A stretch of DNA of 64,000 nt from Escherichia coli (GTDB lineage: Bacteria > Pseudomonadota > Gammaproteobacteria > Enterobacterales > Enterobacteriaceae): NCBI RefSeq assembly GCF_003334815.1, contig NZ_QOWO01000022.1. The stretch is one strand, 5' to 3'. Below, in pieces: positions 7,924 through 9,209 of this stretch. The notes beneath the pieces were generated by a model. It was given only the letters and a program-made list of their open reading frames with translations. It did not search any database and had not been told where the DNA came from. The position numbers and the translations under genes are program-made. The number at the start of each line of letters is the position of its first letter. Positions within the stretch are counted from its first letter, which is position 1.

Positions 7924-9209
7924 TGTGCTTTTTCCTTGTCGGCGGGATGCCGGGTTTCAGTGGTTTCAGTGGTTTCAGTGGTTTCGGTGGTTTCACCAGT
8001 ATCTGAGCCTTCATCGTTATCATGGCGGCGTGGTATCACGTCATCCGTGAGTGACCAGCGGGTCCTTATCTGACGTCTGCGATCGCGGTCTGGCTGAGGT
8101 TCGTCCCATATCAACCCCAGTCTCAGCATGTCCTGCCGCAGCCCTTCAATGGCTTCTTCCACACAGGGTTCCGGGCAGGGCAGGCCGAGACGACACGCTT
8201 CATTTTCTGCCCGGGCAACGGCCACCACGCCGGCCCCTTCGATGAAGCCTTTTGTGGTGTTTGCCCGGTGAAGGGCATAGAAGAGCGTCCGGTCAACGCC
8301 CTTGAGCCACAGCCAGTTCGGAGGCGTCAGGCGCAAATCATGTGCGTAAAGCCAGACCAGACCGCTGCGAACGTAACGGTGCTGCCTGAGCCACTTTTGT
8401 GCGCCTTCTGTTTTGATGACCCGGATAAAGGCGTTTCTGGCCAGTGAATACACCGGCGTGCTGAAACGCCCCTGGTCCCGTTTACTTTTGAGCCTGCAGG
8501 AGAGATTGAGGTTGTTCATCAGGGCTACCGCTGCTTTCCGGTCACCGAGGAAGAACTGCAGGCCAAAGATGGCAAAGAGCGCTTTTTCATGTGGGGCCAT
8601 GTCTTTCCAGCTGGTCAGTGGTTGCCCCAGTTGCGCCATGAAGCACTGGCGTGTGGACGCAACATCGAGCTGCATGTTGCGGATAAGGTTGTTCTGCTCC
8701 ACAAAGGCTTCGGGGGTTAGTGCGACACGGCGCTCGGGACGTTTTTGTCCGTGGAAGAGTCTGTTGTTGTCTCCATCAGCCAGAACGGGGGCGATCGCCG
8801 GTGACAGAGCTGAAAAAATATGGGGCAGTGTGTGGATATTCAGTGGCCTGCGGGTAAAACGGGGCTGGGCCGGATGGTGAAACCACATCCACAGAAAGCC
8901 GAATGTCATGGGAAGCAGAATCAACCAGAGGATCCCCACTGTCCGGGACATAACATCCAGCCACTGGCTGAAAGTGATGGTTGCCGCGTTGTTAGCAGTG
9001 ATGGCCAGCAGGTTGTAACGGGGGGCGGCAAAGTTGTGAAAGGGCCCCCAGTCAATCATGCCCCACAGTGTGTGCAGGATCAGGCAGGAGGCGAAGACGA
9101 TTTCAGGTAAAAAGCGCCAGATGATAATCGCAAAGAGCAGGCATATGGCACCGACGATATACCATATAGCCATTGGATCTTCGGCGGCAGACGTCTGTTG
9201 GTAAGACAC
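7920..9209 (-). CDS. trbA: Inner-membrane transfer protein, DotM/IcmP-like (TrbA)
   Basis: 429 aa with several transmembrane helices; first gene of the trbABC operon by position. C-terminus carries a GETTETTETTETTET repeat. Confidence 0.6.
   Translation of the reverse strand: MSYQQTSAAEDPMAIWYIVGAICLLFAIIIWRFLPEIVFASCLILHTLWGMIDWGPFHNFAAPRYNLLAITANNAATITFSQWLDVMSRTVGILWLILLPMTFGFLWMWFHHPAQPRFTRRPLNIHTLPHIFSALSPAIAPVLADGDNNRLFHGQKRPERRVALTPEAFVEQNNLIRNMQLDVASTRQCFMAQLGQPLTSWKDMAPHEKALFAIFGLQFFLGDRKAAVALMNNLNLSCRLKSKRDQGRFSTPVYSLARNAFIRVIKTEGAQKWLRQHRYVRSGLVWLYAHDLRLTPPNWLWLKGVDRTLFYALHRANTTKGFIEGAGVVAVARAENEACRLGLPCPEPCVEEAIEGLRQDMLRLGLIWDEPQPDRDRRRQIRTRWSLTDDVIPRRHDNDEGSDTGETTETTETTETTETRHPADKEKAQ
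7953..7997. repeat. 9-bp tandem repeat (ggtttcagt x3 plus two variants) encoding (E-T-T)n at the TrbA C-terminus
   Basis: Directly visible five consecutive 9-mers at 7953-7997. Confidence 0.9.

Follow-up and report, generated by a model that had tools for sequence, protein, structure and literature searches.

The window analysed here is a stretch of 64,000 nucleotides from Escherichia coli, in which trbA occupies positions 7920..9209 on the minus strand, starts with GTG and encodes a protein of 429 amino acids, a DotM/IcmP-like inner-membrane subunit of the coupling complex of I-type (type IVB) conjugation. It is followed on the same strand by trbB (6805..7923, 372 aa), identified by its open reading frame and RefSeq annotation as the gene of a DsbC-family protein, and by trbC (4521..6824, 767 aa), whose product is a DotL-like coupling ATPase (open reading frame, plus a match of 1006 bits to NCBIfam TrbC_conju). 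The three reading frames overlap and follow the trbA-trbB-trbC order of the I-type operon. The stop codon of trbA overlaps the start codon of trbB through an ATGA (7923-7920), and the ribosome-binding site of trbB (AAGGA, 7937-7933), which together with this overlap takes up 7920..7937 on the minus strand, lies inside the last codons of trbA, trbB being translationally coupled to it; trbB in turn overlaps trbC.

The gene had been called trbA in a previous sequence-only reading of the window, and this call was supported by the gene order, by the RefSeq label of sequences identical to the encoded protein ('IncI1-type conjugal transfer protein TrbA') and by a match of residues 185-359 to Pfam DotM_C (PF23127, E=3.3e-47). 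These residues, encoded at 8133..8657 on the minus strand, form the folded cytoplasmic domain of the protein as judged from Pfam, AlphaFold2 and charge. In an AlphaFold2 model of TrbA run with 28 homologues, the cytoplasmic domain comes after a series of long N-terminal helices (residues 12-32, 34-52, 55-73 and 92-110, with pLDDT of 80-91). The DotM_C domain, the N-terminal predicted membrane helices and the position of the gene are, as far as sequence and model can indicate, all those of a DotM-like coupling subunit.

Regarding the relationship with Legionella DotM/IcmP (PDB 6EXA-6EXE, 5X1U and 6SZ9), a TrbA profile built from 28 homologues matched the PDB chains of DotM with E=1e-22 over residues 4-361, and the alignment of TrbA from the window with full-length DotM covered residues 4-358. 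Both proteins share a homologous membrane region and an all-helical basic cytoplasmic domain, but their identity is low and the homology stops before the tail of TrbA that bears the repeat described below. For the TrbA protein of plasmid R64, an identity of 23% to Legionella DotM has been described (PMC5802825). When compared with the NCBIfam model DotM_IcmP (NF033890), TrbA scored 71.5 bits, below the curated cut-off of 230. TrbA is homologous to Legionella DotM without being its equivalog.

The records nearest to the window are E. coli plasmids typed IncK2/Z, of about 100-125 kb, many of them from O111 strains, and plasmids of other STEC/EPEC strains are also among them. In pMS7163B, an I-complex plasmid of the same branch, conjugation needs trbA and drops upon loss of trbB (PMC10286972). 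Several additional elements were detected in the window. Just upstream of trbA, at 9352-9441 on the minus strand, there is an Rfam match to the AgrB antisense RNA (49 bits) where RefSeq places dqlB, a DinQ-like toxin gene, and at 19890-20046 on the plus strand there is a match to the sok antitoxin RNA (124 bits), pertaining to a hok/pnd-type system. From these two Rfam matches, the transfer region appears to hold two type I toxin-antitoxin loci. The region from about 10500 to 20000 corresponds to positions 8900-17000 of the matching plasmid L014, where genes for an S6-family autotransporter peptidase, for a phosphoethanolamine transferase and for a protein of the thermonuclease family lie between the transfer genes. 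A 222-bp unit is present in 1.9 copies (79% matches) at 40026-40436, inside an open reading frame on the minus strand (38207-42223). The encoded protein has 1338 aa and, on reading its translation, we take it to resemble the Sog primase; the repeated unit falls in its middle part, which is acidic and rich in Pro, Glu and Thr.

A nine-base array near the end of trbA

Near its 3' end, trbA carries an in-frame tandem array of 9-bp units (7953..7997, coding on the minus strand), which was defined by Tandem Repeats Finder, by inspection of the raw sequence and reading frame and by comparison of copy numbers. Tandem Repeats Finder returned one array, at 7953-7995, with a period of 9, 4.8 copies, 94% matches, no indels, a score of 79 and the consensus GGTTTCAGT. 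The plus strand of 7953-7997 reads as three copies of GGTTTCAGT followed by GGTTTCGGT and then by GGTTTCACC, which on the coding strand corresponds to GGT, GAAACCACC, three copies of GAAACCACT and a final GAAACC. The array encodes G405-(ETT)4-E418-T419, residues 405-419 of the protein, which ends in ...RRHDNDEGSDTG-ETT-ETT-ETT-ETT-ET-RHPADKEKAQ. It can be phased as five xET units (GET TET TET TET TET), equivalent to four full ETT units plus ET. The in-frame 9-bp repeat of E-T-T noticed in the sequence-only reading was thus confirmed by Tandem Repeats Finder, the raw sequence and the frame of the 429-aa open reading frame, whereas its placement at the C-terminus of TrbA was right only approximately, as the array lies near the terminus with ten further residues (RHPADKEKAQ) after it.

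The array consists of head-to-tail copies of one short unit and is far beyond chance. The longest exact self-match at period 9 in the window had 24 bases, whereas 500 shuffles gave no more than 12; for the other periods from 3 to 30, the self-match never exceeded 15. A 15-mer of the repeat, searched for with up to two mismatches, occurred four times, in all cases within the array, compared to 0.18 occurrences expected.

Tandem 9-bp units are similar, in form only, to arrays of the iteron or centromere type, and the repeat could be conceived as a cis-acting DNA site, in which a plasmid protein would bind iteron-like sequences that fall within trbA by chance. This explanation is highly improbable, and the candidate was rejected, because the pair of 9-mers was not found elsewhere in the 64-kb window, a scan of 7600-8400 gave neither promoter-like nor terminator-like sites and no Rfam family matched the repeat locus. 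In addition, the copies range from 1 to 13 among related plasmids, and the array is missing from R64-type plasmids that have the same transfer system.

Copy number among related plasmids

When a 601-bp query across the tract was used, matches were obtained in 472 PLSDB records and in 393 RefSeq E. coli records (381 genomes), from which a sample of 99 rows was taken at even ranking steps (39 PLSDB and 60 RefSeq); the plasmids inspected for type were IncK2/Z, IncB/O or IncI-gamma/K1. All 99 sampled matches spanned 601 + 9k bases, corresponding to 1 to 13 ETT units, and each count from 1 to 13 was represented. No out-of-frame allele was found among the 99 records, in agreement with the earlier proposal that slippage would alter the length of the tail without frameshifting, and no allele devoid of ETT units was seen in this sample. 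The absence of a zero-unit allele could mean either that one unit is needed or that a single unit is unable to slip.

Thirteen sequences were read directly and showed arrays of 1, 2, 3, 4, 5, 6, 7, 8, 9, 10 and 12 units, which fall into two lineages. In the lineage of the window, GAAACCACC is followed by GAAACCACT units (ACT) and the protein ends in ...ETRHPADKEKAQ, with n = 1, 2, 3, 4, 5 and 7, whereas in the second lineage only GAAACCACC units (ACC) are present and the protein ends in ...EKQHPADKEKE/AQ, with n = 4, 6, 7, 8, 9, 10 and 12. These lineage-specific ranges (1-7 for ACT and 4-12 for ACC among the 13 sequences read) could reflect either history or selection. The arrays were pure at the DNA level, including the synonymous third positions, the sole interrupted allele being that of L005, in which one ACC had changed to ATC (EIT). 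As the units are identical in DNA and not just in the encoded residues, their purity points to duplication and deletion of DNA units and not to selection for an amino-acid pattern.

It could be argued that the differences in copy number are artefacts of sequencing or assembly, given that repeats can be miscounted and that a cluster of 96 'partial' TrbA proteins of 405 aa (P0002) ends at …DTG, the residue preceding the repeat. The latter observation would be explained by the breakage of some short-read contigs at the array. As an explanation of the copy-number differences themselves, nevertheless, an artefact is improbable in the extreme: in complete assemblies, produced by many laboratories on various platforms, all 99 lengths sampled are separated by exact multiples of 9, typical reads are longer than these arrays of 18 to 117 bp, and the alleles follow lineages and are reproducible in clonal records.

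The length of the array was also accompanied by differences in annotation. In the RefSeq entries H10, H11, H19, H61, H69, H73 and H74, the name given to alleles of 10-13 ETT units is 'hypothetical protein' or 'secretion/conjugation apparatus DotM-related subunit'. This loss of the TrbA name is apparently due to the length of the repeat, which places these proteins outside the naming model.

Regarding the pace of change, copy number was seen to differ between constant flanks in three pairs (n = 3/4, 4/8 and 10/12), with 0-1 SNPs in flanks of 2.3 kb. The window (n = 4) and pZ1323MEC0002-2 (n = 3) had no SNPs in these flanks, and over 25.6 kb of alignable sequence they differed by 6 SNPs plus the 9-bp gap. 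L008 (n = 8) and L011 (n = 4) were also identical in the 2.3-kb flanks; with longer flanks, the n = 8/n = 4 pair (L016 vs. L017) showed 60 mismatches in 19.6 kb, so that their identity is only local, consistent with mosaic recombination. Finally, L002 (n = 12) and L007 (n = 10) differed by 1 SNP in the 2.3-kb flanks. On the other side, n = 4 was shared by all of the 23 records that match the window over 6 kb with 100.0% identity, in strains whose names suggest isolation from 1997 to 2022, and all members of a second tight group (99.8%) had n = 3. Extreme hypermutability was consequently rejected, as the 23 identical records keep the same number of units. The instability of the array appears to be moderate, with changes probably about as frequent as the accumulation of a handful of backbone SNPs; copy number varies between sub-lineages and is stable within a clone. 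The sequence-only reading had proposed a comparison of repeat number among related plasmids, with an invariant number as the outcome that would speak against it; copy number is not invariant across plasmids (1-13 ETT units, always in frame), and it is constant within the closest clone.

The IncK2 plasmids L002 and L007 are mosaics when compared with L004 and L011 (window about 7700-8200): the last ~250 bp of their trbA, including the repeat, match the ACC-unit lineage with 0 differences, and their trbB matches the lineage of the window, which puts the site of recombination at most about 30 nt downstream of the repeat. Between the two plasmid lineages, the middle of trbB (window about 7250-7550, minus strand) has diverged by about 50%, each 100 nt containing 49-57 differences in the stretch 400-600 nt downstream from the repeat, in contrast to a nearly identical trbA. 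The diverged part encodes a linker of low complexity (…PVTESVTETAPLH…PQEMQETSATPA…), which connects the N-terminal part of TrbB with its DsbC-like domain.

These comparisons suggest that the number of copies changes by slippage. Perfect 9-bp units would misalign during replication, or recombine unequally, and copies would be gained or lost in this way. Because the unit has nine bases, every change would add or remove one Glu-Thr-Thr, and with it one negative charge, leaving intact the frame, the folded DotM_C domain, the ribosome site of trbB and the ATGA overlap. That the reading frame and the downstream coupling signals are unaffected was shown by the alleles themselves, and the fold of the protein is likely to be unaffected as well.

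Coding repeats of variable number are well known in bacterial open reading frames, and MLVA typing in Enterobacteriaceae makes use of them, as in the case of the 6-bp STTR5, located inside a Salmonella gene, and of STTR10, located on plasmid pSLT. The trbA tract is similar to these loci in its short perfect units, of a length multiple of three and within an open reading frame, in the in-frame copy differences between close relatives and in the presumed mechanism, slipped-strand mispairing, and it differs from them in being located in a conjugation gene of IncB/O/K/Z plasmids. No prior description of the trbA repeat, or of its use as a marker, was found in the searchable open-access literature. 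With phase-variable contingency loci the tract shares a slippage-prone repeat in or beside a gene, but it alters length and not an ON/OFF state. A phase-variation switch can be discarded, given that units of 9 bp are unable to cause a frameshift and that all of the 99 sampled alleles are in frame; no promoter-like site lies nearby either.

The TrbA tail and the possible roles of its length

The array lies within a predicted disordered C-terminal tail (7923..8084, minus strand; residues 376-429), as indicated by AlphaFold2 and charge. In the model, the membrane helices and DotM_C had pLDDT values of mostly 80-95, while those of residues 376-429 stayed below 50, with 30-44 in the repeat. The net charge of DotM_C is +10.8, compared to -6.1 for the last 39 residues of TrbA, to which each ETT unit contributes -1. 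Among 44 full-length TrbA homologues the median net charge of the last 20 residues was -4.2, and in 37 of them the C-terminus consists of an acidic patch followed by a final Phe (DDDSPF, DEESPF, DDEQPF); one Salmonella lineage of TrbA carries a different low-complexity insert, PPSPASASAPEPAQEPENEF. The TrbA family thus conserves the acidity of the tail, and not its length or sequence.

The TrbA protein of the IncI1 plasmid R64 (reference sequence NC_005014) has the same operon position, 76% identity over the aligned part, the DotM_C domain and the basic 'PQPDRDRxRRI..WSLTDD' segment ahead of the tail. In contrast, the repeat is absent from the R64 protein, which finishes in a short tail with the sequence ...PRTPATDNEF, and trbB follows after an 18-nt spacer, whereas the lineage of the window has a longer tail with (ETT)n, lacks the terminal Phe and shows the ATGA overlap with trbB. 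Therefore, the repeat-bearing extension is specific to the B/O/K/Z branch. The acidic-Phe tip is found in homologues P0003-P0041 and in R64 (L013:3501-4709, minus strand) and has been lost in the lineage of the window. This tip resembles that of the plasmid's SSB (…FSDDIPF, L014:38820-39347), as well as the tail of TraD that docks TraM, which also ends in Phe. I-type coupling complexes may have in this tip a docking motif that has so far gone undescribed. TraD of the F plasmid is comparable to TrbA in that an acidic flexible C-terminal tail is borne by a component of the coupling complex, although TraD is VirD4-like and TrbA is DotM-like, and the window's lineage is without the terminal aromatic residue.

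The position of the array with respect to trbB raises the question of a role in RNA, in which an A/C-rich unstructured stretch upstream of the trbB ribosome-binding site would act as a standby site or in coupling, the copy number modulating the dosage of TrbB. The array ends 16 nt before the Shine-Dalgarno sequence of trbB, the two genes overlap by ATGA, the repeat is weakly paired by prediction (0.33-0.55), and the repeat-less R64 has an 18-nt spacer instead of the overlap. However, when the trbA-trbB junction was folded with n = 0 to 13, the accessibility of the segment from Shine-Dalgarno to AUG was constant, with a flat predicted pairing probability of 0.22-0.24. Furthermore, the distance from the repeat to the start codon is the same in all alleles read, and ribosomes translating trbA would presumably unfold the region anyway. 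Control of trbB at the RNA level is thus unsupported and very unlikely.

A role for the tract as part of the protein deserves more weight, although we still consider it unlikely. According to this explanation the tract would be a tunable acidic arm that either acts as a pseudo-substrate on the strongly basic surface of DotM_C or contacts a partner, for instance the relaxosome, TrbC or a transferred protein, and length variants produced by slippage would adjust conjugation efficiency or the choice of substrate. The charges of DotM_C and the tail are complementary, and the acidity of the tail is conserved among TrbA relatives, most of which end in the acidic patch plus Phe. In Legionella, the basic patches of DotM are where acidic C-terminal peptides rich in Glu are bound (PMC5802825), and acidic tails of coupling proteins dock partners elsewhere, as in the case of F-plasmid TraD with the relaxosome protein TraM (PMC7434980). 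Against this, only one of the five peptide-binding arginines of DotM is kept in TrbA, R314 (= R307), R196, R197, R217 and R315 not being conserved, in agreement with published data (PMC5802825); the tail is undocked in the AlphaFold2 model, with low confidence across the repeat; circulating conjugative plasmids tolerate a 13-fold range of copy numbers; and the similar-looking peptide of Lem8, EKTEKTEKT, did not bind DotM, though in this peptide Lys neutralised the charge (PMC5802825). A pseudo-substrate for a DotM-like site for Glu peptides is disfavoured by the retention of R307 only and by the undocked tail, and is kept here as a minority explanation. A more specific and still more speculative version, to which we give little credence, is that in B/O/K/Z TrbA proteins the acidic-Phe tip was replaced by the (ETT)n arm, the length of which would set the charge shown to DotM_C, the relaxosome or a substrate partner, copy variants then acting as a heritable rheostat that adjusts the efficiency of conjugation or the selection of substrates.

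The explanation that we favour, with a confidence somewhat better than even, is that the tract is a near-neutral coding repeat of variable number, (GAAACCACY)n, in the disordered acidic tail of TrbA of IncB/O/K/Z plasmids. Since anything between 1 and 13 units is tolerated by the tail, the number of copies is probably nearly neutral in itself, it being the breadth of the copy-number distribution, and nothing else, that suggests neutrality. Given that TrbA proteins conserve an acidic tail, the tract probably does no more than provide this tail with acidic and flexible residues, and the exact length of the tail would matter little.

Significance for IncB/O/K/Z plasmids

The ETT tract thus appears as an ordinary length polymorphism of the slippage type, with a functional role for tail length being possible. 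It provides a ready-made length marker for the sub-typing of IncB/O/K/Z plasmids, which carry blaCMY-2/ESBL genes and virulence genes of STEC/EPEC strains, as it separates near-identical backbones and is stable within a clone. It also calls for caution in annotation, where long alleles lose the TrbA name. With respect to the transfer apparatus, the repeat marks the C-terminal tail of a DotM-like coupling subunit as a tolerant, acidic and predicted disordered region and, if the length of this tail does affect transfer, it would offer a simple natural handle on the function of the coupling complex.
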